From a virus (Duplodnaviria; Caudoviricetes): a DNA stretch of 64,000 nucleotides. The first letter of the stretch is position 1. Every line of letters starts with the position of its first letter. A program made the position numbers and the translations under genes. This document shows, in pieces, positions 21,785-50,154 of the stretch. Below the pieces are notes generated by a model that was not told the origin of the DNA, made no database searches, and saw nothing but the letters and a program-made list of their open reading frames with translations. The DNA lies in the IMG/VR virus record IMGVR_UViG_3300014208_000039, positions 1-64,000 of that record; one strand, 5' to 3'.

Positions 21785-24700
21785 ATGGACGTATCACAAA
21801 AAATACTTTCAGATTTAACGGTGTATATGAAATATGCAAAGTATATTCCAGAACTGAACAGGAGAGAAACATGGGACGAAATCGTAACCCGAAACATGAA
21901 AATGCATATTAAGAAGTACCCACATATTGAGAATGAAATCAGAGAGGTATATAAGATGGTGTATGATAAAAAAATCCTACCATCAATGAGATCTATGCAA
22001 TTTGGTGGAAAATCAATTGAAATTAGTCCAAATAGGATTTATAATTGTGCTTACCAACCAATCGATCATATTGACGCATTTGGGGAAACTATGTTTCTTC
22101 TTCTAGGTGGAACTGGCGTTGGATATTCTGTACAAAAACATCATGTGGAAAAATTACCAGAAATAAGAAAACCTAGTTCAGCAAGGAATAGACGTTATCT
22201 TGTTAGTGATAATATCGAAGGATGGGCGGATGCTATTAAAGTTTTAATGAAATCTTATTTTGGATATTCATCATCAACACCTATTTTTGATTTATCAGAT
22301 ATTAGACCAAAAGGTGCATTATTGGTAACTTCAGGTGGTAAAGCACCTGGACCTCAACCGTTGAAGGATTGTATTCATCATATTGTAAAACTTTTGGAAA
22401 CTAAACAAGACGGGGAAAAACTCGAACCAATTGAAGTTCACGATATTATATGTTTTATTGCTGACGCAGTTTTAGCAGGCGGCATTCGTAGAGCAGCATT
22501 AATTTCATTATTCAGCGCCGATGACAATGAAATGATTGCATGTAAAAGTGGTCAATGGTGGGAAACAAATCCACAAAGAGGTAGAGCAAACAATTCGGCT
22601 GTCCTATTAAGACACAGAATTACCAAAGAATTCTTTATGGATATTTGGAATCGTGTTGAAGCATCAGGTGCAGGTGAACCTGGAATTTATCTTACTAACG
22701 ATAAAGATTACGGAACAAACCCATGTTGTGAAATTGCTTTAAGACCAAATCAATTCTGTAACCTATGTGAAGTAAATGTTTCAGACATCGAATCACAGGA
22801 AGAATTAAATGAAAGAGTTAGAGCAGCTGCATTTGTTGGAACATTACAAGCTGGTTATACTGACTTTCATTATTTAAGGGAAGTTTGGAAAAGAACAACA
22901 GAAAAAGAAGCGTTAATAGGTGTATCTTTAACAGGTATCGGTTCAGGTAGAATTTTAAACTTCGATACCAAACAAGCTGCTAAGATTGTAAAAGAAGAAA
23001 ATGCTCGTGTAGCTGAAATGATTGGTATAAATAAATCAGCAAGAACAACAACTGTTAAGCCTAGCGGATGCAGGCCTCATGATGCGTTAACAACCACAAA
23101 TGACGGTATTTATACTTTAGATGAATTATTTAATGATCATATAGACAATAAAACTTGGTGTGATTTTAATAAGAATGTTTCAGTTATTCAAGACAATAAA
23201 ATTAATAAAATTAATAAAACATTTAATAATGGTGAAGATGAAGTGTTTGGAATTGAATTAGAGGGACAATTATTATTAGAATCGACAAAAGACCATCCTT
23301 GGTTCATTAATAAAAATTATAAAAATAAAAAATACATTAATATTAATACGTTTGTAAAAACAAAAAATATAAAAAAAGGTGACATCGTTGATATTAAACT
23401 TGGCGTATACGACAAAGAAGAAAGTTTATCTCTTAAAAAAATCAATATGTTTAGATTTAAAATGAAACATAATACATTAAGAGAAATAACCCAGCCTGAA
23501 AAAGTTGATGAGGATTTAAGTTGGTTAATTGGTTATTTATGGGGTGATGGTTCATTATCAGAAAGTAAATATAGATTAAGTTTTGTCGATGAACATATTT
23601 TTAATTTAGAAAAAGCCCAAAGAATTATTAAAGAAAAATTTAATTTATTTAATAATATAATAAAATGTAAGGACAGAAACGCATATTCACTATCAATTTC
23701 ATCTGTCGAATTATATCATTGGTTATCATCTAACGATATTAGAAAATATTCAAATAATGGATTAGATTATATACCGTTAATTATTAGGCGTTCTAGTTGG
23801 AAAGATATAATCGCTTTTATTGCGGGATTTAGTGATGCTGATGGTTGTATTTCATTAAAATCAAATAAAATACATAAATCTGTAATCATATCTCAATCTG
23901 GAAATTCAGGATTTACAAGACATTTACAGAATGTTGCTTTATCAGTTGGTATTCATTTAAACCATTCTTATAATATTAAAGGAGATTCCTTTCAAAAAGA
24001 AAAAAATATTATACTAATGTCATCCACGCATTTCAGTTTAAAAAAATCAATGGATGTTTTTGATAAAAATTCTGAAAAGTCAAAAAGAAAATATCCTGAT
24101 CTAGAATTTGGTCATAATGAAAATGGTAAACCGAATCAAATTTTAGGTAAAGTAAAAAATGTTAAATTTTTAAGAAATGATAATACTTATGATATTGAAA
24201 TTGATAATGAACACTGGTATTATGCGGGAGCAATAAAATCTCATAATACCGCATCATTAGTTTTAGGAACAGCAAGTGGTATTCACGCTTGGCATAACGA
24301 TTATTATATTCGTAGAGTAAGGGTAGGTAAAAATGAATCAATTTACACATATTTGTCAATTTATCATCCTGAACTTTTAGAAGACGATTTTTTCAGACCA
24401 CATGACACTGCTATTATTTCTGTTCCACAGAAAGCACCTGAAGGCTCAATTTTAAGAACTGAAAGTCCGTTACATTTATTGGAACGTATTAAATATATTT
24501 CACAAAATTGGATTAAACCTGGTCATTCAAGTGGAGCAAATACACACAATGTATCAGCAACAGTAAGTTTAAGGCCCGAAGAATGGGATACTGTCGGTGA
24601 ATGGATGTGGGAAAACAGAAATTTCTACAATGGATTATCCGTTTTACCCTATGATACGGGGTCTTATAAGCAACCTCCTTTTTCTGACTGTACGGAAGAA

Positions 24701-24823
24701 GAGTTTAACGAATTAAGTTTAAAGTTGCATAATATCGATTTATCAAAAGTTATTGAAATGAATGATAATACCGATTTAAGAGGTGAATTAGCGTGCAGCG
24801 GAAATAATTGTCAGATTACATAA
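21785..24823 (+). CDS. nrdJ: Class II (adenosylcobalamin-dependent, monomeric type) ribonucleotide reductase containing an intein
   Basis: LPSMRSMQFGG, NCAY, GGTGVGYSV, GGIRRAALIS, TNPCCEI, FCNLCEV, TTVKPSG/TASL, C-terminal CSGNNC; no NrdB gene nearby. Confidence 0.88.
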   Translation: MDVSQKILSDLTVYMKYAKYIPELNRRETWDEIVTRNMKMHIKKYPHIENEIREVYKMVYDKKILPSMRSMQFGGKSIEISPNRIYNCAYQPIDHIDAFGETMFLLLGGTGVGYSVQKHHVEKLPEIRKPSSARNRRYLVSDNIEGWADAIKVLMKSYFGYSSSTPIFDLSDIRPKGALLVTSGGKAPGPQPLKDCIHHIVKLLETKQDGEKLEPIEVHDIICFIADAVLAGGIRRAALISLFSADDNEMIACKSGQWWETNPQRGRANNSAVLLRHRITKEFFMDIWNRVEASGAGEPGIYLTNDKDYGTNPCCEIALRPNQFCNLCEVNVSDIESQEELNERVRAAAFVGTLQAGYTDFHYLREVWKRTTEKEALIGVSLTGIGSGRILNFDTKQAAKIVKEENARVAEMIGINKSARTTTVKPSGCRPHDALTTTNDGIYTLDELFNDHIDNKTWCDFNKNVSVIQDNKINKINKTFNNGEDEVFGIELEGQLLLESTKDHPWFINKNYKNKKYININTFVKTKNIKKGDIVDIKLGVYDKEESLSLKKINMFRFKMKHNTLREITQPEKVDEDLSWLIGYLWGDGSLSESKYRLSFVDEHIFNLEKAQRIIKEKFNLFNNIIKCKDRNAYSLSISSVELYHWLSSNDIRKYSNNGLDYIPLIIRRSSWKDIIAFIAGFSDADGCISLKSNKIHKSVIISQSGNSGFTRHLQNVALSVGIHLNHSYNIKGDSFQKEKNIILMSSTHFSLKKSMDVFDKNSEKSKRKYPDLEFGHNENGKPNQILGKVKNVKFLRNDNTYDIEIDNEHWYYAGAIKSHNTASLVLGTASGIHAWHNDYYIRRVRVGKNESIYTYLSIYHPELLEDDFFRPHDTAIISVPQKAPEGSILRTESPLHLLERIKYISQNWIKPGHSSGANTHNVSATVSLRPEEWDTVGEWMWENRNFYNGLSVLPYDTGSYKQPPFSDCTEEEFNELSLKLHNIDLSKVIEMNDNTDLRGELACSGNNCQIT
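23069..24247 (+). mobile_element. Intein (393 aa) with LAGLIDADG homing endonuclease in nrdJ
   Basis: Inserted at KPSG|C...HN|T. Starts CRPHDAL; block B ESTKDHPW; LAGLIDADG motifs WLIGYLWGDGS and FIAGFSDADGC; ends YDIEIDNEHWYYAGAIKSHN. Confidence 0.93.
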
Positions 24824-25980: not shown

Positions 25981-26430
25981 ATGGCAACATACGGTATAGA
26001 TTTCCCATTTAGGGATAGTTTAAAAGGAGACTTCCTTAATATGACTCAAACACCTGAAAGAGAGGTTCGAGCCGACTTAATACATTTACTTTTAACAAGA
26101 AAAGGAACAAGATATTTTTTACCCGATTTTGGTACAAGATTATATGAATATATTTTTGAACAAAATGATTCAGTTAGTTTTAGTTTAATTGAAGAAGAAA
26201 TCAGGGAAAGTATAAGAAAATACATTCCAAACTTGGATATAAACAGTATTGAAGTAATGTCAGCGGAAGACGATCCAGATGAGTCACAAAGTTTTTCACA
26301 GGATGAAGACGAAAGATTATTTAGGGTATCAGACGCTTCAACTAAACCATACACAGCTAAAGTAAAAATCGACTATACTGTTAATAACGGAGCATTTTCG
26401 TCTTCGGATTTTATAATAATAAACATTTAA
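25981..26430 (+). CDS. Baseplate wedge subunit gp25-like (GPW/gp25 family)
   Basis: GIDFPF..EVRADLIHLLLTRKGTRYFLPDFGTRLYEYIFE..IRESIRKYIP. Confidence 0.9.
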   Translation: MATYGIDFPFRDSLKGDFLNMTQTPEREVRADLIHLLLTRKGTRYFLPDFGTRLYEYIFEQNDSVSFSLIEEEIRESIRKYIPNLDINSIEVMSAEDDPDESQSFSQDEDERLFRVSDASTKPYTAKVKIDYTVNNGAFSSSDFIIINI

Positions 26431-26431
26431 T

Positions 26432-28264
26432 ATGAGTAAGAGAATTAGTTATTCGGTTAGAGATTTTGCGGGGTTAAGACAAGAACTTGTCAATATGACA
26501 AAGGAATATTATCCCGATTTGGTTAAAAATACCAATGATGCTTCAATATTTTCAGTATTATTAGACCTAAACGCTGCGGTTTCTGATAACTTACACTTTC
26601 ATATTGATAGGGTTTGGCAAGAAACTATGTTAGACTTTGCACAACAAAGACAATCATTGTTTCACATTGCAAAAACATATGGATTACGAATTCCTGGGTT
26701 AAGACCGTCAGTTGCGTTATGTGATTTTTCAATAAATGTGCCTGTTAGGGGGGATAAAGACGATATGCGTTATGAAGGTATTCTAAAAGCGGGGGGTCAA
26801 ATATCGGGCGGAGGGCAAACTTTTGAAACAATGGAAGATATTGACTTTGCCAATCCATTTAACAGTAAAGGCGAACCAAATAGATTGAAAATACCTAATT
26901 TTGATGTTAATAACAGGTTAATTTCATACACTATAACCAAAAGGGAAGCTGTAGTCAATGGTGTAACAAGAATTTACAGAAGGTCTATCAACGAACTTGA
27001 CCAGAAACCTTTTTTAAAAATTTATCTTCCTGAACAAAATGTGTTAGGTGTCACATCTATCATTCATAAAGACGGAACATCGTTTGGATCGAACCCAACA
27101 TCATCAGAATTCACTTCAACAACGAATAAATGGTATGAAGTTAAGTCATTGATACAAGATAAAGTATTCGTTCCTGATCCAACTAAAATTTCCGATAAAG
27201 AAAATTTTAAGCCAGGTACATATCTTGATGTGAACAATAAATTTATCACGGAGTACACTCCAGAAAATTACTTTTTAATTACTTTTGGATCAGGAACCGT
27301 TAATCCAATGGAAAATGTGGATAATTATATTACTGATAAATTAAAAGTAAATTTAGCATCTTATCTAAATAATATGTCCCTAGGTGCAATACCTAAAGCC
27401 AACACAACTTTGTTCATAAAATATAGAATTGGTGGTGGAAAATCTTCTAATTTAGGTGTAAATGTTATTAATAGTGTCGACAATATCGAGTTAAATATAA
27501 TGGGGCCGGTGCAAAATGTTAATTCTCAGGTGGTAAACTCAATTAGGGTATCAAATGTGACACCCGCTATAGGCGGAGCTGATCAACCTTCAATTGATGA
27601 TATTCGGGCAATGATTGGATACAATTTTGCTGCACAAAATAGAGCGGTTACGTTGAACGATTATAAATCCCTTATTGAAAATATGCCATCACAATTCGGA
27701 GCGCCAGCTAAAGTAAATGTAATGGAAGAAGATAATAAAATTAAAGTAAAAATGTTATCTTACGACGAAAATGGTAATTTAACTACGGTTGTGTCAAACA
27801 TTCTAAAAAACAATATTGTTGATTATTTATCAGAGTATCGTATGATAAATGACTATTTGGATATTGCCAGTGGTGAAGTTATTGATTTAGGATTTGAAAT
27901 TGATATAGTTTCAAATAGAAATGAAAACGACACAGAAATTATTAAAACTACAATTGACACAGTTATTAATTTAATGTCAATTAATAAAAGAAAAATGGGT
28001 GATCCATTATTTATTGGCGATATGTATAGAGAAATTGGTAATATTCCAGGAGTTGTGAACGTAGTGGATATTCGTGTGTTTAATAAAATTGGTGGAGAAT
28101 ATTCAACAAATGAATCGGCTCAGTCATATAGTAATGAAGAAACTAGACAGATTTTAGATCAAGATAAAATCATTTATATGAAGTCTAATCAGATATTCCA
28201 AGTTAGATTTCCTAATAAAGATATAAAGGTAAGGATAAAAAATTTGACTTCGACTACATTTTAA
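26432..28264 (+). CDS. Baseplate wedge subunit (T4 gp6 / baseplate J-like)
   Basis: RDFAGLRQEL, AQQRQSLFHIAKTYG, YRIGGGKSSN, AIGGADQPS, AQNRAVTLNDY. Confidence 0.88.
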   Translation: MSKRISYSVRDFAGLRQELVNMTKEYYPDLVKNTNDASIFSVLLDLNAAVSDNLHFHIDRVWQETMLDFAQQRQSLFHIAKTYGLRIPGLRPSVALCDFSINVPVRGDKDDMRYEGILKAGGQISGGGQTFETMEDIDFANPFNSKGEPNRLKIPNFDVNNRLISYTITKREAVVNGVTRIYRRSINELDQKPFLKIYLPEQNVLGVTSIIHKDGTSFGSNPTSSEFTSTTNKWYEVKSLIQDKVFVPDPTKISDKENFKPGTYLDVNNKFITEYTPENYFLITFGSGTVNPMENVDNYITDKLKVNLASYLNNMSLGAIPKANTTLFIKYRIGGGKSSNLGVNVINSVDNIELNIMGPVQNVNSQVVNSIRVSNVTPAIGGADQPSIDDIRAMIGYNFAAQNRAVTLNDYKSLIENMPSQFGAPAKVNVMEEDNKIKVKMLSYDENGNLTTVVSNILKNNIVDYLSEYRMINDYLDIASGEVIDLGFEIDIVSNRNENDTEIIKTTIDTVINLMSINKRKMGDPLFIGDMYREIGNIPGVVNVVDIRVFNKIGGEYSTNESAQSYSNEETRQILDQDKIIYMKSNQIFQVRFPNKDIKVRIKNLTSTTF

Positions 28265-36681: not shown

Positions 36682-37970
36682 AAATAATATAGAAATTATA
36701 ACTTTTCTATATTATTTAGATATTTATAAATATGAAGTTAGTTGAACAACATATTTTCCATAAAACCAGTAATAGATTTAAATCTTTAGATAACATCTGT
36801 TTTTTATCAAAAAACTTATATAATTCGGCGTTATACAGAATAAAAAACGATTTCGATTCTAACGGAAAATGGTTAAGATATAATGAATTAGAAAAAGAAT
36901 TTAGAACATCGGATCAAAAAGATTATATTTCTTTACCTAACAATTCTTCGCAACAAATTCTAATGCTACTTGATTCAAACCTTAAATCCTATTTTAAGGG
37001 TTTAAAATCATTTAAAAAATCTAAAACATCTTTTAGTGGTTGTCCGAAATTTCCTTTTTATAAACATAAAACAAAAGGAAGAAATATAGTTGTTTTTACG
37101 TCAGTTCAATTTAGATTTAAAGATAATAAAATTTTCTTTCCAAAAAAATCAGGTATTTCGCCATTATCAACAAAATTATCCAAAGACAGTAAAATACAAC
37201 AAGTACGTGTTATACCTAAAAACGATTTATACGTAATTGAAATTGTTTATAATTTCCAAGAAAAAATTAATTTAAATAAAAATAATGAATATTTGTCCAT
37301 AGATTTAGGAATTAATAATTTAGCTTCATGTATAACAACGAAAGATGATATACCGTTTATTATAAACGGTAAACCGTTAAAATCAATAAATCAATATTAT
37401 AATAAAAAGAAGTCATATTATCAGAGTAAATTAGAATTAAATAATAAAAAGAAATGTAGTAAAAGAATCACAAAATTAACAAATAAAAGGAATAATAAAA
37501 TTAATGATTATTTACATAAGTCCAGTAAATTAATCATTAATTATTGTAAAGAAAACCAAATTGATAATTTGGTCTTAGGTAAAAATATAGGCTGGAAACA
37601 GGAAGTTAAATTGGGTAAGAAGAACAATCAGAATTTTGTTCAGATTCCGTTTAATAAGTTTGAGTCGTATCTAAGTTATAAGTGTATTAAGGAAGGAATA
37701 AACTTTTTATTAAGAGAAGAAAGTTATACATCAAAAGCAAGTTCATTGGATATGGATTTTATTCCAAATTTTGATTCAAAAGAAGATCATATTTTTTCGG
37801 GAAAAAGAATTAAAAGAGGGTTATATAAAACTTGTGATGGAACGTTACTTAATGCGGATATTAATGGAAGTATTAATATATTAAGAAAAGAAATTGGGGA
37901 CGATTGGTTAAAACCAATAATACTCAATAGAGGGTTCGTGGTTAACCCAATAAAGGTGTCACCTTTATAA
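36682..37970 (+). mobile_element. Non-autonomous IS1341-like element (tnpB with terminal hairpins)
   Basis: 14-bp left hairpin AAATAATATAGAAA / TTTCTATATTATTT (36682-36717); right hairpins GGGTT..AACCC (37932-37948) and ATAAAGGTG-T-CACCTTTAT (37950-37968). Exact ends uncertain. Confidence 0.6.
36732..37970 (+). CDS. tnpB: IS200/IS605-family TnpB RNA-guided endonuclease (no tnpA)
   Basis: LSKNLYNSALY, RuvC-I LSIDLGINNLA, INGKPLKSINQYYNK, DYLHKSSK, NFVQIPF, REESYTSKAS, RuvC-III LNADINGSINILRK. Confidence 0.92.
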   Translation: MKLVEQHIFHKTSNRFKSLDNICFLSKNLYNSALYRIKNDFDSNGKWLRYNELEKEFRTSDQKDYISLPNNSSQQILMLLDSNLKSYFKGLKSFKKSKTSFSGCPKFPFYKHKTKGRNIVVFTSVQFRFKDNKIFFPKKSGISPLSTKLSKDSKIQQVRVIPKNDLYVIEIVYNFQEKINLNKNNEYLSIDLGINNLASCITTKDDIPFIINGKPLKSINQYYNKKKSYYQSKLELNNKKKCSKRITKLTNKRNNKINDYLHKSSKLIINYCKENQIDNLVLGKNIGWKQEVKLGKKNNQNFVQIPFNKFESYLSYKCIKEGINFLLREESYTSKASSLDMDFIPNFDSKEDHIFSGKRIKRGLYKTCDGTLLNADINGSINILRKEIGDDWLKPIILNRGFVVNPIKVSPL

Positions 37971-38009: not shown

Positions 38010-41000
38010 ATGGTAGTAAGAAAAAAAGTTCCAAGTCAAGCGGCTAGTGGTGCAGATACTTTCAGCGACAGTTTAGTTGGTAGACAAGTAACGGACGGTA
38101 CTAGTGAGTTAACCAACACGAATTTTGAATTAGATAGGGTTTTCCCTGAAAAAGATAGCAAGAATTTTAGGTCTGCAGCTTTCTCGGAATTTTTAACGCT
38201 CGATGATTTAAAACTTGAAAGTGATGCTGTTAGTACGACTGACAACGAACAAGATGACAATAAAATCAAATTCAAACAATCCAAGGATAACGGAAGTAAA
38301 TCGATATTTGGTTCATTAAAAAGTAGAATCAATGTATCAATTAATCGAATCATTACCAAATTCCCTGCTGCGGTACTTGCCGACTCGGAAACGTCAGTTA
38401 GAACAAACATCTACACTGCGTCAGGAATTACATATGATATTGAATCAAATACAACTGAATTTTATTTAGAGTCGTCAATTCTTTATAACCCATTCGGAAT
38501 TTTATTAACAACACCTTCAGGTAATCCGGATATAAATTCGGATAATCCAATTAGAAATTTCTATTCTTCATATACAAAATATGTTATAGAAATCACAGGT
38601 AGTACATATGACGTTTTAGAATATACTGAACCTACCAGTTCAAACCTAATTAAATTAAAAGTTAAGGGTAATCCTTTTCAATCAAATACAACATATACTG
38701 AAAGTTATCTTATTAGACCTAATAACGGAATTTCAGAAGGATTTTTCAAAGGTTTAGATGACTTAGAACAGGTAATATTAAATAGGGATACAAATCCTAT
38801 ATACAATGCAACATTTAGAATTCCACAAGATAGTTTTGACCAATCTAAAACAAATTTAGTTGAAGTCAGGGTTAATTGGCCTGTTGCAAAAGATAATTGG
38901 AACATAAAAATACATGGTATCGACTATATCAATTATGTTGATAAAATCGGTAGTATTGCTGATGAAATTGATGATTATAAATCTAACTTATTCGTTAGGT
39001 TTATGACTGCACCCCAATTATTTGAATTTGATAGTGATGATCAAAAAGCTCAAGCTGTTTTTCAATTATATGGTCAAAGTTTTGATAGGGTAAAAAAATA
39101 TATTGATAATATTGCGTTTATGCGTAATGTTAGTTATGACGGTATTGAAAATTTACCAGATATTTTATTGAAAAATCTTTCAACAACATTAGGTTTTGAA
39201 ACTATTAATCTAACTGAAAACACAACTATTGACGATTTACTATATAAAAAACAGGATAATACCTTCTCAGGATTATCGATTGGTAGTAATATAATTGATG
39301 GCGAATATGAGTTTTACAGAAGATTATTAGTAAATTTGGCTTATCTGTATAAATCAAAAGGTACTCGTCAATCAATCGAATTTTTTTTACGTTTCATTGG
39401 TGCACCAGAACCGATGATAAAGTTTAATGAGTATACATATAAAATTAAATCGTACCCAAAATCATATAATCTTGAAAAAGACATTTATGATGTTATTGCG
39501 GGAACTAAATCAACCACAATAGCGGAGTTCAACCCAACAGGATACACATATAGCACGGTAACAACAACCACTTCAATAAATTTAACAAGGGAAGAATACC
39601 CTGTTATTGAATATACAAACACGCCAAGGTCATTTTATAGTAACACATATGAAATGTTCTTCCAAAAAGGAGCTGGATGGTATGAATCAACATTAGGCCA
39701 TCGTTCAAGTGATATTCTTGACGAAGAAAATTCGGTTCTTACTGGTAGAACTAAAACGTTAAAAACTAAATCAAGTGATTTTACATTTGGTGAAGATTAT
39801 TTTGACGCGTATAGGACTTTACCTGGGTTAGATACGGGTTATGAAATTGAATCATCGGTTGATAATATTAAAGGTATCGTTAGTGATATTATTCCTAACG
39901 ATATGTTTAATAGAAAAAATATTAGTGTGTATATTACATCGGCAAATGCTGTTGATTATGATATATATAGAAAATCTAGAGATTTATCGATATCCTTTGG
40001 ATCAGCAACTTTATTACCACAAACAGGTGTAACATTTGCTGAATATGCCGACAGAATTTTACATGAACAAATTACAAATTCTAATACGATAAAATACACA
40101 AAGAATTACATCAAATTAGAAGACATTTATAGGGATTATATCAATAGTACAGGATTTACACCATATTACTTAGGCGATCTTAATGAGTTTGTTAATTTAA
40201 TGGGGACAAATTGGTCAAAATTATTAGATCAAATTATTCCATCAAGTACTTTATGGACGGGTGGTAATCTTATCGAAAATAATAGATTTGGAAGACCAAA
40301 ATATCAATATCGTTTAGGTTGTCAACCAAAAGAATTTAATGAAGATGTTTATCCGGATTTTCAAACAACAATTGAAGAAGATATTGAAAATTTAGTTGGG
40401 GATATTAATAATTTTAGGGGATTATCTCAATTAACTGGAGTGAGCTTTTATCCTGTTATTGAAATTGATGGTGAAATTTATCCTAAAAGCGGTGATACAG
40501 ATAATTTTAAAATAAATATTACAAGCGGTGATCTATTCAATGGATTTTCGTTAAATACTTGTAATCCAGTCAATCAAGATAATCTTCCATTAGTGTGTGA
40601 TTATAAACTTACTTTGGATATCGATTATGATTTAATCAAATTACAATGGAAACAAAAATTAATAGATTTAATTGATTATATTAATAATATTACAACGGGT
40701 TATACTGCTGGGTATTATAATTATCAACCATTTTTAAATGCATCGGGTATCGGCCCAACAACATTAACACCAACTGGAATTCCTAAATTAAACTATGAAT
40801 TCTATACTGATATTAACGGTATAGAAAAAATTAAATTTACTTCTATCAAATATAGTACTAACGAATGTTCTGTTTTAGAATATTTTGATTATAGATTTAC
40901 TAGTGAATTCGATACAATTAAAAATGTGTGTTCAATTGACGCTACTATTCAATCTGAAGGTAGTCATTATTCGGGTGGAACAGGTAGTACATTATGTTTA

Positions 41001-44000
41001 TTAAATAATGATATCTATTTCAATTTTAACGGAGTTGGACCAATTACTATCTTTGGAACTTGTAACCCAACACCAAATCCTACAACCGTTTCAGGTAAAA
41101 CGTTGGATTATTATGGTTGTACGTTTGTTTTAAGAGACGTAAATGAAAATGATAAAATTGATTTATTATTTACCGATATAACCAATTGTGATTTAAAGAT
41201 AAAAGTTGAAGGATTAGGTATAAATTGGATAAATAGTGATGAATATGTTATAGTACCTAAAGTACAATATAGGCAATCTTATGATTACGGTTTAAAAAAC
41301 GACTCATATGTTTTAGTGAGTGGAATGACTATTACATCAAAGATGGTAGATCAATTAGTTGTGGGTGATGTTATTCTTATGTATGACTATAATAGTAATT
41401 ACATTAGTAACCAACTATTAAAAGATGGAATTACAAATAACGATTTATCGTTTATAAGACAATATGTACCGAAAACAATTTCAGACATAGATTGTTTAGC
41501 TTCAAACAAAAAATATATAATTAACGGAAATATTGAAGTTCTACCAACTAGTAAAATGTTTGTTTATACTAAACAATATGTAGATATAGATGGTAATGTT
41601 TCCGATAATGGTAGTTATTTCTTTGATTATAGATTTCCAGAATATTTAAAAATTAGAACAACAGGTACAACCGATAATTCATGTTGTGGTGAGAGTAATA
41701 TTAATAATGGGGATTATTTAATTGGTTCGGATGGTAAGATGATTGAAATTCTCACTTTGGAATTAGATTATTGTGATTCAGAACTTTATTATAATATTAA
41801 TGTAACCGACGATTCAGGTTTAGAATTTTTAACCGTATTTAACGGAATGATAACAGGTACAACAGTAATGATTGGACATAATTATGTACCATTTACTACA
41901 ATGGACGAAGAGTTATCACAAACATATGATAACGGTTCTTGTGTTGTTACTGATCCTGATAGAAATTATATAATTCCATGTACAGGTACACCTATTGTAA
42001 ATTGTGATATTGTCGGATTTGCACTATGGGTCGATAATGTCCCAACTCCTACACCGACTCACACTCCAACATTAACGCCAACATCAACCCCAACACCAAC
42101 ATCAACCCCAACTTCCACCCCTACATTGACACCAACATATACAACAACACCAACGTTAACTCCTACACATATTGTAAACTGTTTAATAGATGGTTATGCA
42201 GAATTTATGAACCCAACGCCAACACCTACCCCAACTATAACCACAACATCCACACCTACAATTACACCACAACCAACAGAAACAGCAACTCCGACTCCAA
42301 CGACAACATCAACAACAACATTAACACCAACGTCTACCCCTACATTGACGCCAACAAATACTCCGACTTTAACTCCAACTCAAACATATACACCTACTTT
42401 AACGCCAACGGTAACTGGCGCCCCTGTCTATACCTGTGACACCGAAATACCAACATGGATTGAAGGTGAAAATTACGGTAAAGTAATTGTTATTTTAGGC
42501 CCTGAAGAGGGTATGGTGACATTTGATTATGAACCTGTTATTATTAAAGATAATTTTATTATAACAGATGAAAATGGTAATTATTTAACTAGCACTGGAT
42601 TTGTTGGAGATAGTGGAACTACACAATTCTGTAAAACAAGTGGATATACATATGTGTTTGTGGAAGTATTACCAGAGGTACCAATTGGATCAATTTGGAA
42701 ATTTAAATTAAGTTGCCCAACTGGACCATGTACAACTGCAGCACCAGTACCAACACAAACTCAGACTCCAACATTAACAAATACACTTACACTTACCCCA
42801 ACATTAACGCCAACAAATACGCCTACTGTAACTAGTACTCCTACCCCTACGCCAACATTAACAGCAACACAAACTCCAACATTAACACAAACCTTAACAT
42901 CAACCTTAACATCAACGCCAACCCCAACAAATACACTTACGTCAACTTTAACGTCGACCCCAACTCCAACTCTAACATCTACGCCAACTCTAACATCTAC
43001 ACCTACTCTAACATCTACACCTACGCCAACATTAACGCCAACGCCAACACTAACTCCAACATTGACACAAACCCTTACACAAACCCATACACAAACAAGT
43101 ACGAGAACACCCACTCACACATCTACGCCAACCAGGACAAGTACTTCAACGTTAACTGCCACTCATACTCCAACATTAACGCCCACGTTAACTCTTACAT
43201 CTACTCCAACATTAACGGCTACATTAACTTCAACGCTCACACAAACAATTACAGGTGGACTAACACCCACACCAACTTCAACTCCTACAATTACGCCGAC
43301 TTTAACTGAAACGCCAACATCTACACCAACATTGACGTCAACATCTACACCAACTATGACGCCAACTATGACGCCAACTTTAACATCAACAAATACGTCA
43401 ACATTAACGCCAACAAATACACCTACTGTAACTAGTACTCCTACCCCTACGCCAACATTAACAGCAACACAAACTCCAACGTTAACGCAAACCTTAACAT
43501 CAACCTTAACATCAACGCCAACACAAACTATTACAGAAGGATTAACACCTACGCCTACATCAACACCAACGACTACGCCAACTCTAACGCCTACTTTAAC
43601 ATCTACCCCCACACTAACAATTACCGCGACAAACACATCTACCACAACACCTACTTTAACACCAACCCTAACACCTACTTTAACACCAACTCAAACATAT
43701 ACCCCAACAAGAACTGGAACGCCAACACCCACGCCAACAAGAACAAGTACTCAAACACCAACGTTAACGCCTACCCTTACACCTACCCTTACACCTTCAG
43801 CCACAGCAGTAATAGAATTTTTGGCGGCATTTGCCCTCGATAGTCTTACATGTGAAACTACAGATATAGCGGATGATCCACCAACGATTGTTTTGAATTC
43901 AGTAACAAATAGTGGATATAATTATATGGAATCAGTAAGTGAAATAACATATAATGGCGACCCAACTGAAATATTATCAAGAGGTATTTATCTTGGAACA

Positions 44001-44453
44001 AATAATCCGCCAACTGAAAGTGATAGAGTAACAACCGATGGTTCGGGTCCTGGTAAATATAATAGTAAAATAAATGATTTAGCATGTAACACTAAGTATT
44101 ATGTTAGAGCATATGCAATTACCGCATCGTATGATACAATAGTTTCAAATATTATGACCTTTACTACGCCGGCAGCAACAATATTTATTCCAGAAGCATT
44201 TTCACCAAATGGTGATAACATTCACGATACTTGGATGGTTTATGGCTTAAGTAGTTATTGTAATAATAACAATGAAATGTTTATATTCAACCAACCTGGC
44301 GAACAAGTATTCCATTCAACATCTTATCATCTTAATTGGTGGAACGGTAAAGTAAATAATACAGGATCATTGGTTCCAGTAGGAACATATTATTATGTGT
44401 TCTATCTTAACGGATCAAGATATAAATCGGCAACGGTATTCGTTAGTTATTAA
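38010..44453 (+). CDS. Giant baseplate wedge/fibre protein: wedge (gp7 / P2 gpI-like) region, Hint-like domain, Thr/Pro stalk, FN3, type IX secretion type B C-terminal domain
   Basis: [39 protein letters not shown] wedge motif; Hint-like 41289-41882; T/P tracts about 42040-43805; FN3 43878-44168; [29 protein letters not shown] 44181-44450. Confidence 0.75.
42040..43805 (+). repeat. Thr/Pro low-complexity tandem repeats ([12 protein letters not shown]), including a 124-bp direct repeat
   Basis: Three T/P tracts. 42799-42922 and 43399-43522 are identical except for 3 synonymous A/G differences; offset exactly 600 bp. Confidence 0.95.
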
Positions 44454-45390: not shown

Positions 45391-48300
45391 ATGTCAAGTG
45401 TAACGATAAATTTAAATAGTACTGATTATAATTCAACTAAACCTAGTTATGGTTCAGTAGGACAATATGCCACAAATCTTAGATTTGCTAATAAATCCAA
45501 AGCATTGAAATTTACTAATGCCGATTATGGAATTGCAACCGTAACAATAAGTTTTACTGGATCAATAGATTATGGATCGGTATATTTTTCTGATCCAAAT
45601 GGCGGGGATGTGTCGGTATCAAAAAACATTGATGGAATTTATATGGTTAGTAATGAAATAGCCAAAATTGAAAATATTTTTTATCAAAACGGAACAGGTG
45701 GCACCACTACTTATTATGTTATTATTAATTCAAATACTTCATTAAAATCAGCCGAATTAAATGTATCAGTTGCACTTGGAAAATACAATACAAAACCTTC
45801 AGGAACTAGTTTTACTATAAATTGCTCTTGCCAAGACCCAATTTATACATACACAACTGGATTACACACATATTCACCTTATGATGCTAAAAGTGATTTA
45901 TCAAAACTTACAACTATTTTATATTCACGAGTTCCAATAGGATCGTGGACACCTGGTACTAAAGTTTATTGTACTAATACATTTAGTCATCCAGCTTTGC
46001 CATATTTTTATGGATACGGGGCAAATGTTTATCAAGTCGGTGATGAAATCGATAGATCATATGGTACTAAAAAACAATATACGGTTAAGAAAAAAATATT
46101 CGGTAAGCCTAAAACAACTGAGCAAACAATAATAGGAAATACATTCAATTTAACCAATCAAACGTCAGAAGCGTGTGTTGTTCCATCAATGAGTAGAGTT
46201 GGACAAATAACGAACATATTATCCGCATCTTCATTAATACAACCATCACAATATAGATATTATTTAGGATATAATTCTACAAATAAACAACAATCAAATG
46301 ATAGCGTGTTTACTACATATGATTTTGGAACAAAACAACATAATCCGATAACTGGCGCACTTCATGCGTTAGAGAAAGTGACGCAAGGGGTTATTGTTGG
46401 TTACAATACAACTTGGGACCCAAATATTTGGTCTGCCGTTGCAGGTGGTGCTTTAGGATTAGGAGCAGTAATAGCACTGGCTGAGGGTACTGCAATTAAT
46501 GCAGCTGCGGGTTTATTATTGGACTATTTAATAGGTATATTATCCGATACATGGATTGGCGCAGCAATTACCGCCGCACAAGGAATTCCAGTATGGGGTC
46601 AAATTGCTTTTTTAGTTGTTGCATTACTTGCATTATTATGGGGTATACTTAGAACTAAAACAACTGTTTATAGGGAAGACTGTAAATTATTTTTACATCA
46701 TTTTACCGATACACCGTATATCGAATTAACAAGTAAATTATATAGGGATGAAGATTTAACTGTTCAAAATAATGGGTATTATTGTGATGGAGTTTATTTC
46801 TTTGAACAAACAGGTATTGGAACAGGTAAAACTATAACATCGAAAGAATTATCTTCATGTTACACAACTATTTCAACAAACCCAACTAAATATGGAACAT
46901 TATATTCATTACAAGCCGATAACCCAACGTTAGTGACAAATTTTCAAAAGCTAATTGTTTTATTATATGAATCGGGTAAACCGTCACCTTATTGTGGTGG
47001 GGATAATGTATATTATAGTAGTTATATGTCGCAATACGTAACAGGAAAAACTTGTTGTGATTTGGAGGTTTGTAATTCATATTTAATTGAGTTTGACGCT
47101 GGATTAGAATGGAGTTGTATTAGTGTTGCTGACGCAAATAGTAAAGTTACACCTAAGTTTAATGCTGCAGCATCTTATGCGCAAAGTCAAGGAAATTTTA
47201 ATACATTATTAACAGACGCCGACTTAGGTGAGTTACCATCATATTTTACACATGAATTAAAGGTAGAAAACACACCAACTCAAACAAGCTTTTATTATGA
47301 TAAAAGAATAAATACTAATCCAGATGTCGGTATGTCAATATATTACGATCCTTGTGGATGTACTAAAGTATTAGACGGTTATTATGGTATAACAGGTATA
47401 ACATATTATAGAACATTTTATCATACTACTAATGGAGCTATCGATGGAATTTATTACATGTCCACGTCAGGAAGTACTACTACCACTACTTTAGAACCAA
47501 TTATATTAACAAATTTAAATTATACAAGTAATTGGTTTTTAAAAGGCTCAAATAATGTACTTTTACAATATTATACAGATAATATTGAATTGGATAGGTT
47601 ATTTAATCCAAATTCCTTGTATACTAATCCGATGCTGGTTAAAGGGTTTATTAATGATCTAACAAGTTTAGATGATTTTAAAAGATATACGGGAACAACT
47701 GAATCACAAAGTACTGAAGCCGATACGGGTTGGTATAGGCCATTAATCGACTGGATTGAACCGTTACCGTTCTATTACAATAAAACACAAACGATAACAT
47801 TGAATACTGAAGAAGTATGTGATTTTATGGTTAGTGGATCAACACTTAGAGGATTTAATATTGTTGGGGTTGACGCTGATTTATTAGAAACGCCAACACA
47901 TAATGTAGTTAACTTAACAGTTAATGTGTATAGTAATACAGGATTAACTGCGACATATATTTGTGATACTTTACCTTCAGATTCAAAAACATTTATTCCG
48001 TTTGATGTACAAGTTGGATCAACTGAAGATGTTACAGGTATTACAATTTCATCAATCAATTCAACTAATCCCATAAATAAAACCACATACGCAATCGGTA
48101 CGTTTACTGATTGCGATTTAACAGAATATAATTTACCGACAGTAACAATTAGTTCACCACTAACATTTGTATCAGAGGCAATGGCCACCGCAACGGGTAA
48201 TGTAACAAATGATGGTGGTGCCGTTGTAACAGACAGAGGATTTGTTTGGGGGACAAACAGTGGAGTGACATTATCCGACTCATTTACTAATTCAGGTAAC

Positions 48301-50154
48301 GGAACAGGAATTTTTTCAGGTAACATAACACAATTATCTGGAAATACAACATATTATGTAAGGTCGTACGCCACAAACATTAAAGGTACATCATATAGTA
48401 ACGAAATTACATATGTATATAATATTCCGACTCCTACACCGACATCAACTCTTACATCTACGCCAACATTAACACCTACATTAACATCAACACCCACAAC
48501 ATCAGTTTGTATTGAAGAAGTTGTTGTATACGGAGCTTTGTATAATTTTTATGCAGTTCTTGATTCTAGGAATATAGCAAATATAGGATGGCATATTTCT
48601 GCCTATGCCGATTTGCAGACAATGGTTGCTTATTTAGGGTCTACTACTGCCGGACAAAAAACTAAAGAATCCGGAACATTACATTGGCAGTCTCCAAATA
48701 CAGGGACAAACATAGCCTTATTTAATGCAAGAGGGGCTGGAACAAGGGCTACAGATGGTACCTTTGGTAGTTTGTTACAGTATTTCCAAATATGGCATTC
48801 TACAGCATATGATGCAAGTCATGGGGCCACTTCGTGGTGGACTTCTGGTAGTAATTCTATTACGTCGGCTATTAATTTTGCTGGATATCCGTATAAGCAA
48901 GGTATGAGTTTGCGTCTTGTCAAAGATTTTACAACCTTATCTGATGGTCAAACTGGAACTTATATAGGTAATAATGGTAAAGTTTACAGGACTATTTGTA
49001 TAGGTACACAGGAATGGTTAGCGGACAGCCTAAACGAGACTAAATACCAAAATGGAGATTGGATCACTGGATATGATGGAGGAGTTTATACTCCAATCTC
49101 GAACGCAACTTGGGCCGCACTAACTACAGGAGCTATGTCCTATTATAATGATGATGTAAATAATGGAAGTATATTGCAACCTTGTCCTACACCTACACCC
49201 ACGCCAACTTTAACGGCTACATCTACGTTAACACCCACTTTAACAAACACACCTACGTTAACTGAAACTCCCACATTAACGCCAACGTTAACCCTAACAG
49301 CAACTCCAACGTCAACTCAAACACCTACGTCAACTCAAACTAGTACTCCAACATCAACTCTTACATCTACGCCTACTCCTACAATGATATCACAATGTTT
49401 TAATATTGGAACCGGATTTAGTAGTACTGTTTATTCAATAGATGTTCAAACCGATGGTAAGATATTGGTTGGAGGATCTTTTACATCGTATTCAGGTGTA
49501 ACATCAAATTATATAATAAGGTTAAATAGTGATGGATCAATTGATACTGGATTTACAATTGGAACAGGATTTAGTTCAACAACACTATCTATATATGTTC
49601 AGCCAGATGGTAAGATATTGATTGGAGGGAACTTCATAACATATTCTGGCGTAACATCAAATTATATAATAAGGTTAAATAGTGATGGATCAATCGATAC
49701 TGGATTTACAATTGGAACAGGATTTAATGCTGCCGCACGTTCTATATATGTTCAGTCTGATGGTAAGATATTGGTTGGAGGATCTTTTACATCGTATTCA
49801 GGTGTAACATCAAATAGGATAATAAGGTTAAATAGTGATGGATCAATTGATACTGGATTTACAATTGGAACAGGATTTAGTTCAACAACATATTCTATAT
49901 ATGTTCAGTCTGATGGTAAGATATTGGTTGGAGGGAACTTCACAACATACTCAGGTGTAACATCAAATTATATAATAAGGTTAAATAGTGATGGATCAAT
50001 CGATACTGGATTTACAATTGGAACAGTAATTACTAATAGTGTTTCTTCTCTTAGAATTCAGACAGATAATAAGATATTGGCTGTTGGTGTGTTCACAACA
50101 CCAAATAGGATAATAAGATTAAATAGTGATGGAACTACTGATAATTGCATATAA
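45391..50154 (+). CDS. Tail fibre / adhesin-like protein: hydrophobic segment, FN3, T/P linker, permuted FISUMP domain, T/P linker, delta-60 (DUF5122) repeats
   Basis: FN3 LPTVT..DGGAVVTDRGFVW..TTYYVRSYATN (48133-48420); FISUMP halves YGALYNFYAV..SLRLVKD and GKVYRTICIGTQEWLA..YYNDD (48529-49155); VQTDGKILVGGSF..IIRLNSDGSIDTGF repeats. Confidence 0.75.
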   Translation: MSSVTINLNSTDYNSTKPSYGSVGQYATNLRFANKSKALKFTNADYGIATVTISFTGSIDYGSVYFSDPNGGDVSVSKNIDGIYMVSNEIAKIENIFYQNGTGGTTTYYVIINSNTSLKSAELNVSVALGKYNTKPSGTSFTINCSCQDPIYTYTTGLHTYSPYDAKSDLSKLTTILYSRVPIGSWTPGTKVYCTNTFSHPALPYFYGYGANVYQVGDEIDRSYGTKKQYTVKKKIFGKPKTTEQTIIGNTFNLTNQTSEACVVPSMSRVGQITNILSASSLIQPSQYRYYLGYNSTNKQQSNDSVFTTYDFGTKQHNPITGALHALEKVTQGVIVGYNTTWDPNIWSAVAGGALGLGAVIALAEGTAINAAAGLLLDYLIGILSDTWIGAAITAAQGIPVWGQIAFLVVALLALLWGILRTKTTVYREDCKLFLHHFTDTPYIELTSKLYRDEDLTVQNNGYYCDGVYFFEQTGIGTGKTITSKELSSCYTTISTNPTKYGTLYSLQADNPTLVTNFQKLIVLLYESGKPSPYCGGDNVYYSSYMSQYVTGKTCCDLEVCNSYLIEFDAGLEWSCISVADANSKVTPKFNAAASYAQSQGNFNTLLTDADLGELPSYFTHELKVENTPTQTSFYYDKRINTNPDVGMSIYYDPCGCTKVLDGYYGITGITYYRTFYHTTNGAIDGIYYMSTSGSTTTTTLEPIILTNLNYTSNWFLKGSNNVLLQYYTDNIELDRLFNPNSLYTNPMLVKGFINDLTSLDDFKRYTGTTESQSTEADTGWYRPLIDWIEPLPFYYNKTQTITLNTEEVCDFMVSGSTLRGFNIVGVDADLLETPTHNVVNLTVNVYSNTGLTATYICDTLPSDSKTFIPFDVQVGSTEDVTGITISSINSTNPINKTTYAIGTFTDCDLTEYNLPTVTISSPLTFVSEAMATATGNVTNDGGAVVTDRGFVWGTNSGVTLSDSFTNSGNGTGIFSGNITQLSGNTTYYVRSYATNIKGTSYSNEITYVYNIPTPTPTSTLTSTPTLTPTLTSTPTTSVCIEEVVVYGALYNFYAVLDSRNIANIGWHISAYADLQTMVAYLGSTTAGQKTKESGTLHWQSPNTGTNIALFNARGAGTRATDGTFGSLLQYFQIWHSTAYDASHGATSWWTSGSNSITSAINFAGYPYKQGMSLRLVKDFTTLSDGQTGTYIGNNGKVYRTICIGTQEWLADSLNETKYQNGDWITGYDGGVYTPISNATWAALTTGAMSYYNDDVNNGSILQPCPTPTPTPTLTATSTLTPTLTNTPTLTETPTLTPTLTLTATPTSTQTPTSTQTSTPTSTLTSTPTPTMISQCFNIGTGFSSTVYSIDVQTDGKILVGGSFTSYSGVTSNYIIRLNSDGSIDTGFTIGTGFSSTTLSIYVQPDGKILIGGNFITYSGVTSNYIIRLNSDGSIDTGFTIGTGFNAAARSIYVQSDGKILVGGSFTSYSGVTSNRIIRLNSDGSIDTGFTIGTGFSSTTYSIYVQSDGKILVGGNFTTYSGVTSNYIIRLNSDGSIDTGFTIGTVITNSVSSLRIQTDNKILAVGVFTTPNRIIRLNSDGTTDNCI
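49408..50142 (+). repeat. Delta-60 beta-propeller repeats, 153-bp period, four full units plus one partial
   Basis: Units start at 49408, 49561, 49714, 49867 and 50020; near-identical at DNA level. Confidence 0.92.

Follow-up and report, generated by a model that had tools for sequence, protein, structure and literature searches.

To our knowledge, type B C-terminal domains (CTDs) of type IX secretion systems (T9SS) are known solely as signals by which Bacteroidota export and anchor their surface proteins. T-even distal fibres are modular fibres that combine a conserved N-terminal anchor with swappable C-terminal tips. Here we describe a phage gene in which a type B CTD forms the end of a giant protein encoded in a tail module. 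The gene lies in a 64,000-nucleotide stretch of DNA, the first 64 kb of the IMG/VR virus record IMGVR_UViG_3300014208_000039 (hereafter the window), where one open reading frame (ORF; 38010..44453, + strand) encodes 2,147 amino acids (aa). We refer to its product as the giant protein.

Paillat et al. (2025, PMC12618676) state that the T9SS accepts only periplasmic substrates, which are brought to the periplasm by a Sec signal peptide. The same study reports that all five CTD motifs are required for carrier-dependent secretion in Flavobacterium johnsoniae, and that carrier specificity needs these motifs without being settled by them alone. Type B substrates remain on a dedicated carrier at the cell surface (PMC12635249; PMC9143113). 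Flavobacterium mutants affected in the T9SS or in gliding resist a broad range of phages, which are presumed to use SprB and RemA as receptors (PMC9804748). Phage-encoded T9SS cargo has so far been represented by the type A CTD genes of 'Cryophage' (Bellas et al. 2020, PMC7468147), and the literature we searched yielded no description of a CTD on a phage structural protein.

The giant protein ends in a type B CTD

Profile searches assigned the end of the giant protein to the type B CTD family. The Pfam model CHU_C (PF13585) matched aa 2059-2140 with 65.7 bits against a cut-off of 27 (E = 4.2e-18), and the NCBIfam model TIGR04131, named 'T9SS type B sorting domain', matched aa 2060-2137 with 37.8 bits against a cut-off of 35. 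When the whole record was searched in six frames, a CHU_C match of 71.2 bits was found at 44184-44432, within 44181-44453, and the domain scored 99 bits against a local hidden Markov model (HMM) made from 39 bacterial CTDs. The match stops 7-11 residues before the stop codon, which places the CTD at the extreme C-terminus. In the 39 bacterial proteins the CTD ends 0-40 residues, mostly 5-21, from the C-terminus. An earlier note on this DNA, made from its letters, had read a type B CTD at the end of a 2147-aa ORF and had proposed a check against CHU_C and TIGR04131. Both models exceeded their cut-offs and the C-terminal motifs that the note quoted are present in the sequence, so its reading of the domain is borne out.

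We modelled the CTD with AlphaFold2 from an alignment of 57 CTDs and obtained predicted local distance difference test (pLDDT) values of 74-97. The model superposed on the NucA CTD (8glk_D) with a Z-score of 8.9 and a root-mean-square deviation of 2.1 over 74 aa (VIA-align), although Z-scores of 8-9 are only moderately over background in this comparison. Its other neighbours included the RemZ, FspA and RemA CTDs together with the PorU, PorZ and mirolase CTDs, all at Z 7-8, and the RgpB CTD at Z 6.0. Four of the matched chains (8glk_D, 8gl8_D, 8glj_D and 8gl6_D) are T9SS substrate CTDs captured in SprA-PorV complexes. We take the solved CTDs used in this fold comparison to be mostly type A.

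We also compared the phage domain with the family motif by motif. In our own mapping onto the sequence of the five motifs (A-E) that Paillat et al. place in the last ~100 aa, PxAFSPNGDxxxD, W-x-G, G-T-Y-Y-Y and the terminal strand are kept, and the NRWG-type motif (motif B) reads NQPG. Two near-invariant CHU_C positions are changed (G to N and N to H), and they are changed likewise in the bacterial subtype described below. Taken together, we conclude that the C-terminus is a genuine type B T9SS CTD with a CTD-like beta-sandwich fold.

The CTD is carried by a stalked protein without a signal peptide

Between a conserved N-terminal core and the CTD, the giant protein consists of Thr/Pro-rich linkers and small domains (Table 1). 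A composition scan identified Thr/Pro/Ser-rich segments at aa 1341-1390, 1401-1470 and 1571-1930, giving a stalk region of ~600 aa in total that is broken by a small beta-rich domain. No Pfam family passed its threshold for this middle domain (aa 1471-1570). The stalk is followed by a domain to which two profiles align, phrog_15511 over aa 1876-2055 and the N-terminal domain of NF049889 over aa 1957-2057. It is a widespread module: 22,382 library proteins match it at E <= 0.001, as tandem repeats of up to 34 copies in giant surface proteins bearing signal peptides. The top 150 matches of an exhaustive library search, which were dominated by this repeat, included none with CHU_C, a result that is silent on where the CTD came from. 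No Pfam FN3 model matched aa ~1957-2057, and the fold was poorly predicted for the domain, which was modelled without an alignment. We call it FN3-like on the basis of the label in the earlier note and its Ig-like repeat character. Of that note's statement that the CTD follows an FN3 domain and a long Thr/Pro stalk, the stalk is upheld by the composition scan and a repeat domain is indeed present, but its identity as FN3 found no backing in Pfam.

The N-terminus of the giant protein has no hydrophobic core. The best hydropathy over 10 residues is 0.3, compared with 2.2-3.6 in nearly all complete CHU_C proteins encoded on viral contigs, and the position of the start is fixed by relatives in which the N-terminus is conserved from residue 1. 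We also considered an internal start that would supply the FN3-CTD part with a signal peptide of its own and ruled it out on the sequence, in which no internal Met is followed by a hydrophobic segment. These results agree with the earlier note, which had seen no signal peptide, and support its argument that a protein without a Sec signal is not an ordinary T9SS substrate. Because a Sec signal is missing, we conclude that the CTD does not act as a secretion signal here.

The core is conserved and the C-terminal extensions are not

The first ~1,300 aa of the giant protein have more than 180 homologues, which align over their full length at 43-52% identity and come from metagenomes and viral contigs, in proteins of 1272-2857 aa. 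The shortest homologues of the core, at ~1,400 aa, mark its extent, and the closest relative (L002) is 87% identical. Past the core, the C-terminal extensions are wholly different among relatives. They include F5/8 type C domains, BspA-type leucine-rich repeats, DUF285, SprB repeats with cadherin, a DUF5122 propeller and many unnamed domains, and many have Thr/Pro linkers. One core relative of 2,568 aa (P0102) carries SprB repeats and cadherin domains in its extension and has no CTD, which indicates that the phage family drew on SprB-like adhesins more than once.

The surroundings of the core gene are also conserved. The gene order 1229-582-267-367-307-core is kept in two 335-kb relatives (L012 and L005), and the 367-307-core part of it in two more distant genomes of 321-322 kb (G005 and G006). 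Within a conserved syntenic block, ~10 kb separate the gene from the gp25-like and gp6-like genes upstream of it, and Flavobacterium phage immuto has its tail fibre and spike genes at the same relative position. A fixed anchor with variable tips is, as far as sequence can tell, the pattern of a receptor-binding locus.

Attempts to identify the core by comparison were less informative. We aligned it with hhalign to T4 gp6, gp7, gp8, gp9, gp10, gp11, gp12, gp53 and wac and found no match, with a probability below 1% against every T4 wedge protein. Its matches in BFVD were confined to uncharacterised myovirus proteins. An AlphaFold2 model of the core had a mean pLDDT of 58, and with this low-confidence model Foldseek returned nothing from the PDB at E <= 0.001. 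Within the model, aa 1094-1291 (41289-41882) are beta-rich at moderate confidence. A relationship to the Hint family was not apparent either, with no Pfam match in aa 1-1340 even at E <= 10. The description of the N-terminus as baseplate wedge-like, made in the earlier note, therefore drew no homology from PHROGs, Pfam, PDB profiles, Foldseek or hhalign against T4, and is left with gene order as its one support.

The CTD belongs to a subtype found on SprB-repeat adhesins

We next compared the CTD with bacterial domains and found that it carries the signature of a subtype, consisting of a 14-residue loop motif at its start and VFVSY at its end. The closest CTDs in long proteins belong to bacterial "gliding motility-associated" proteins, at 36-46% identity, and these have signal peptides wherever the N-terminus is intact. 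The same signature is present in P0277, a protein of 3,472 aa with a signal peptide and SprB repeats, and in giant proteins from metagenome-assembled genomes (MAGs) of Prolixibacteraceae and other Bacteroidota. The bacterial bearers of the subtype are SprB-repeat/cadherin adhesins with signal peptides, and a gene of the PorP/SprF family directly follows the adhesin gene in every case tested (8/8, 127-160 bits), for example at L102:6392-7333 and L106:6339-7286. The likeness of the giant protein to these adhesins is limited to the CTD, aa 2058-2147, and begins exactly at the CTD boundary.

The phage CTD is a reduced version of this subtype. Of 53 near-invariant columns in the bacterial domains it keeps 30, and in comparison with L097-L108 it lacks the two conserved cysteines, one in ..RDC.. 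and the other in ..IYC.., as well as two loops of ~9 and ~6 residues. The loss of cysteines and loops is what might be expected if a domain of periplasmic or extracellular origin had come to fold in the cytoplasm. A 98-aa metagenomic fragment on a 609-bp contig (P0311) contains a CTD that is 67% identical and has the same trimmed, phage-type traits. The GC content at third codon positions (GC3) of the CTD is 0.233, compared with 0.14-0.24 in neighbouring phage genes, and we conclude that its codon composition is phage-like.

Scanning JGI metagenomes recovered 261 relatives, none above 47% identity, and exact-word scans of viral and genome contigs recovered no close relative of the FN3+CTD segment. 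The subtype points to Prolixibacteraceae-like Bacteroidia as the host group, at identities of 38-42%, which are too weak to name a host. In the course of these comparisons we also observed a 357-aa protein on an IMG/VR 'GVMAG' contig (L020:9185-10258) with a GDNxHDTW-variant CTD, 43% identical, and no evident signal peptide at its called start. Although its label is that of a giant-virus MAG, this contig may consist of bacterial DNA that was mis-binned.

The fusion is rare, and CHU_C proteins on other viral contigs resemble cargo

A survey of related phages for fusions of core and CTD, as the earlier note had suggested, returned none: CHU_C was found in 0 of the 120 core relatives that we retrieved, both by single-sequence search and with a sensitive local HMM. 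CHU_C is also absent throughout one related genome that is complete and three fragments of related genomes. Conversely, the phage core or its neighbours were present at none of 160 bacterial or metagenome loci that carry this CTD subtype.

CHU_C proteins as such are not rare in viruses. At least 70 IMG/VR contigs encode them, as judged by a strict FxPNGDGxND pattern whose matches were all confirmed with an HMM and in several cases with Pfam, and the contigs include complete jumbo phages of 200-385 kb. Nearly all of the complete viral CHU_C proteins are 100-900 aa long with classical signal peptides, and some have SprB, PKD or Ig_7 domains. A version of ~554-610 aa recurs in at least six contigs (L030, L032, L051, L068, L077 and L080). 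Two complete jumbo phages (G005 and G006) encode a distant homologue of the core and, as a separate gene, a cargo-type CHU_C protein of 610 aa. From their sequences, the viral CHU_C proteins that bear signal peptides look like phage-encoded type B T9SS cargo. PorP/SprF genes were not found in five jumbo genomes (G001, G005, G006, G007 and G009), three of which encode CHU_C, and this negative is weak because control genomes gave no match either.

A borrowed CTD as the candidate tip of a receptor-binding fibre

We favor the explanation that a borrowed CTD serves as the distal tip of a receptor-binding fibre on a giant tail-module protein, and we put its probability at roughly 0.55. The conserved 1,340-aa core would anchor a giant, peripheral, fibre-like protein on the virion of a jumbo myophage whose host would be a T9SS-bearing member of the Bacteroidota. 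The stalk of ~600 aa, rich in Thr and Pro, would push a variable payload away from the particle, the payload here being the FN3-like domain and the CTD. The CTD would have been acquired through module shuffling, either from a host gene for a SprB-like adhesin or from a CHU_C cargo gene of related phages. The protein would be made in the cytoplasm. Its CTD would have taken on a new role as the outermost beta-sandwich of a fibre that binds a receptor, trimmed for this role by the loss of two loops and the cysteine pair. We infer the location of the protein on the virion, the contact of its tip with the host and the nature of the binding target.

Module shuffling accounts for the architecture without the T9SS, because the tip position is hypervariable and is filled by unrelated tips in 120 relatives. 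The trimmed loops and missing cysteines likewise suggest that shuffling suffices and that no T9SS role is needed. Given the pattern across the family, shuffling of tip modules is the simplest account, the receptor mimicry or T9SS jamming suggested in the earlier note is weakened as a default reading, and the 'undescribed system' for which the earlier note had named this locus the best candidate overstates the sequence evidence. Several observations count against our explanation. Searches with PHROGs, Pfam, PDB profiles, Foldseek against the PDB and the ESM Atlas related the core to no fibre or baseplate protein that has been characterised, and the fusion is represented by a single complete example. 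In addition, loop motif A is identical to that of P0277, with which the CTD shares 40% identity overall, and VFVSY is kept, which is beyond what a generic scaffold would need. Such strict retention hints that the original binding function may have been kept.

If the binding function was kept, the CTD at the tip could bind a cognate PorP/SprF-type carrier, or a carrier-loaded translocon, from outside the cell, which is the receptor mimicry of the earlier note. Adsorption would then be predicted to occur at the anchor of a SprB-like adhesin, and by extension the virion might ride the gliding track. The adhesins that end in this subtype supply a concrete candidate partner, with a PorP/SprF gene next in 8/8 cases, and type B substrates remain carrier-bound at the surface (PMC12635249, PMC9143113), from which it follows that a site for the CTD is turned outward. 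The phage domain keeps motifs A, C, D and E along with the signatures that mark the N- and C-terminal ends of its subtype, the record encodes no carrier of its own, and the phage resistance of Flavobacterium T9SS and gliding mutants (PMC9804748) is in keeping with such a receptor. Against this, motif B is altered from the NRWG type to NQPG, and any of the two lost loops and both lost cysteines could belong to the carrier interface. The motifs are, according to PMC12618676, insufficient for carrier specificity. Moreover, carriers are loaded during export in cells, docking would presuppose empty, accessible carriers at the surface, and unrelated domains fill the tip position in all 120 relatives. 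We regard docking on a carrier as plausible but not likely.

It is less probable still that the CTD is a remnant without a role, carried in by recombination together with the FN3-like module or the end of the stalk. The fusion is unique among the 120 relatives compared, the DNA of the Thr/Pro linkers is repetitive and recombination-prone, and several conserved positions have drifted, all of which would be expected of a passenger. However, codon composition is phage-like throughout, the domain has an intact reading frame, every motif that defines the fold and a confident model, and the 67%-identical copy in P0311 has the same trimmed form. Because bacterial homology begins at the CTD boundary, the FN3-like domain was not co-acquired from the same kind of gene. 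We consider it very improbable that the fusion arose during assembly by joining a phage contig to foreign DNA across the Thr/Pro repeat. The stalk is indeed repetitive and the contig of the closest relative, L002, ends inside it, which marks it as a spot where assemblies break, but conserved phage genes flank the CTD, with downstream genes of 695 and 205 aa whose counterparts in L012 and L005 show 51-72% identity. GC3 is uniform, and L002 has the same middle domain and stalk. The FN3-CTD segment runs in frame from the stalk and possesses neither its own start codon nor its own signal peptide. Had two strains been joined here, the segment would thus nevertheless end a stalked protein of this phage group. 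Genuine use of the T9SS, in which the protein or a C-terminal fragment would enter the periplasm by an unconventional route and then be exported or block the translocon, is the reading to which we give the least credence. Real CHU_C proteins of the cargo type do occur on viral contigs, both related and unrelated, but the giant protein has neither a signal peptide nor an internal Met with a hydrophobic segment, and the T9SS takes periplasmic substrates only (PMC12618676).

Genomic context and neighbouring genes

The record is linear, 74,826 bp long and ~22% complete according to CheckV. Relatives of its genes are located on contigs of 320-336 kb, some of them 100% complete and one with terminal repeats, and on this sequence evidence we take the record to be a fragment of a jumbo myophage of ~330 kb. 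All long ORFs are on the + strand, and the GC content is ~30%. The gp25-like and gp6-like genes open a tail/baseplate module (25981..28264, +), and PHROGs also identified replication genes. Among cultured phages, the gp6-like protein has its nearest relative in Flavobacterium phage immuto, at 25% identity. We searched 50,697 GenBank phages by tblastn with the whole giant protein and by megablast with 20 kb of the DNA and retrieved nothing.

Two variable genes follow the giant gene (Table 1). FN3-like, FISUMP and DUF5122 modules are typical of Bacteroidota surface proteins. The product of the 1,587-aa gene combines an FN3-like module (phrog_15511), FISUMP (Fib_succ_major) and a delta-60/DUF5122 beta-propeller, and is a second giant variable protein of the tail module. 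The 297-aa gene was considered as a PorP/SprF carrier and rejected, as its product lacks a signal peptide and any family match, and its sequence is rich in Cys instead of resembling a barrel. No match to PF11751 (PorP/SprF) was found within the 74.8-kb record, which represents ~22% of the genome.

Two further genes caught our attention. A solo TnpB gene of the RNA-guided endonuclease family lies between the 307-aa gene and the giant gene. These two genes abut in five relatives (L002, L012, L005, L092 and L093), which indicates that TnpB is a recent insertion in the tail operon. In a ribonucleotide reductase ORF of 1,012 aa, the matching PHROG covers only aa 6-429, and aa 436-541 match a terminase-associated PHROG. 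This ORF may contain an intein or a homing-endonuclease insertion.

Table 1. Coordinates of the giant protein's parts, of other genes in the window and of CHU_C genes on other viral contigs
Feature	Coordinates	Strand	Evidence
Type B T9SS C-terminal domain (CHU_C), aa 2058-2147 and stop codon	44181..44453	+	Pfam, NCBIfam, six-frame matches, AlphaFold2, fold, subtype alignment
N-terminal core conserved in relatives, aa 1-1340; presumably the body and the part attached to the virion	38010..42029	+	Homologues, synteny
First Thr/Pro-rich linkers, aa 1341-1470	42030..42419	+	Composition scan; tandem 12-30-bp repeats; same layout in L002
Small beta-rich middle domain within the stalk, aa 1471-1570	42420..42719	+	Sequence kept in L002 (87% relative)
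Long Thr/Pro stalk, aa 1571-1930; repetitive DNA, GC 0.43, strong C-over-G skew	42720..43799	+	Composition, repeats, L002 comparison
FN3-like / Ig-like domain, aa ~1957-2057, preceded by a short hydrophobic segment	43800..44180	+	phrog_15511, NF049889
gp25-like baseplate gene	25981-26430	+	phrog_261/43
gp6-like baseplate wedge gene	26432-28264	+	phrog_219/6
Downstream variable genes, 297 aa (no family) and 1587 aa	44465..50154	+	Not conserved in relatives
1,587-aa gene	45391-50154	+	
Solo TnpB gene	36732-37970	+	NF040570, 186.6 bits
Ribonucleotide reductase ORF	21785-24823	+	PHROGs
Viral CHU_C loci, for example	L051:1681-3507, L050:1698-4391, L044:1107-3734, L047:913-2805, ~65 more (L022-L091)		

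Discussion

A tail-module protein with a CTD and without a signal peptide shows that what phages take from host adhesins includes the sorting domains as well as the adhesive repeats. What follows from this depends on the role of the tip. If the CTD is only a re-used scaffold, the locus would be an ordinary case of fibre-tip shuffling. If it docks on a carrier, this would be a new mode of phage host recognition and the first virus to mimic the sorting domain of a secretion substrate. Docking would also supply a molecular reason for the broad phage resistance of Bacteroidota T9SS and gliding mutants, and the CTD would be a natural probe both of how type B CTDs engage their carriers and of whether empty carriers are exposed at the surface. 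The class of partners for such a tip is defined, namely the carriers encoded beside adhesins of the same subtype. Independently of the giant protein, the viral CHU_C cargo with signal peptides bears on how phages remodel the surface of their hosts.

The closest bacterial counterparts are the type B substrates with PorP/SprF carriers, such as SprB-SprF of F. johnsoniae and PG1035-PorP of P. gingivalis, in which giant proteins of several domains likewise terminate in a domain of the CHU_C/TIGR04131 family. The phage domain shares its subtype with SprB-repeat adhesins encoded beside PorP/SprF genes, and its predicted fold is a CTD-like beta-sandwich. In contrast to the SprB-SprF type, however, the giant protein has no Sec signal and no adjacent carrier gene, is synthesized in the cytoplasm, is built on a phage-specific core and ends in a shortened CTD without cysteines. 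A second comparison is with T9SS CTDs that are already known from phages. The 'Cryophage' type A cargo (PMC7468147) is likewise a T9SS CTD in a Bacteroidota phage, but both this cargo and the CHU_C cargo of IMG/VR consist of small to mid-size proteins that are presumably exported by the host T9SS, with signal peptides in nearly all complete IMG/VR members, whereas the giant protein lacks a signal peptide and its CTD is fused to a structural-module core.

Modular phage fibres of the T-even type provide the remaining comparison. They too have a conserved N-terminal body with a hypervariable C-terminal payload, and a tail/baseplate block beside variable fibre genes. The giant protein differs from them in having no sequence homology and, with a low-confidence core model, no fold match to a characterised fibre, in its mucin-like Thr/Pro stalk and in a tip that is a T9SS sorting and anchoring domain. 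Taken together, these comparisons suggest that the giant protein is a modular phage fibre with a host-derived tip, which for the first time would be a T9SS anchoring domain.

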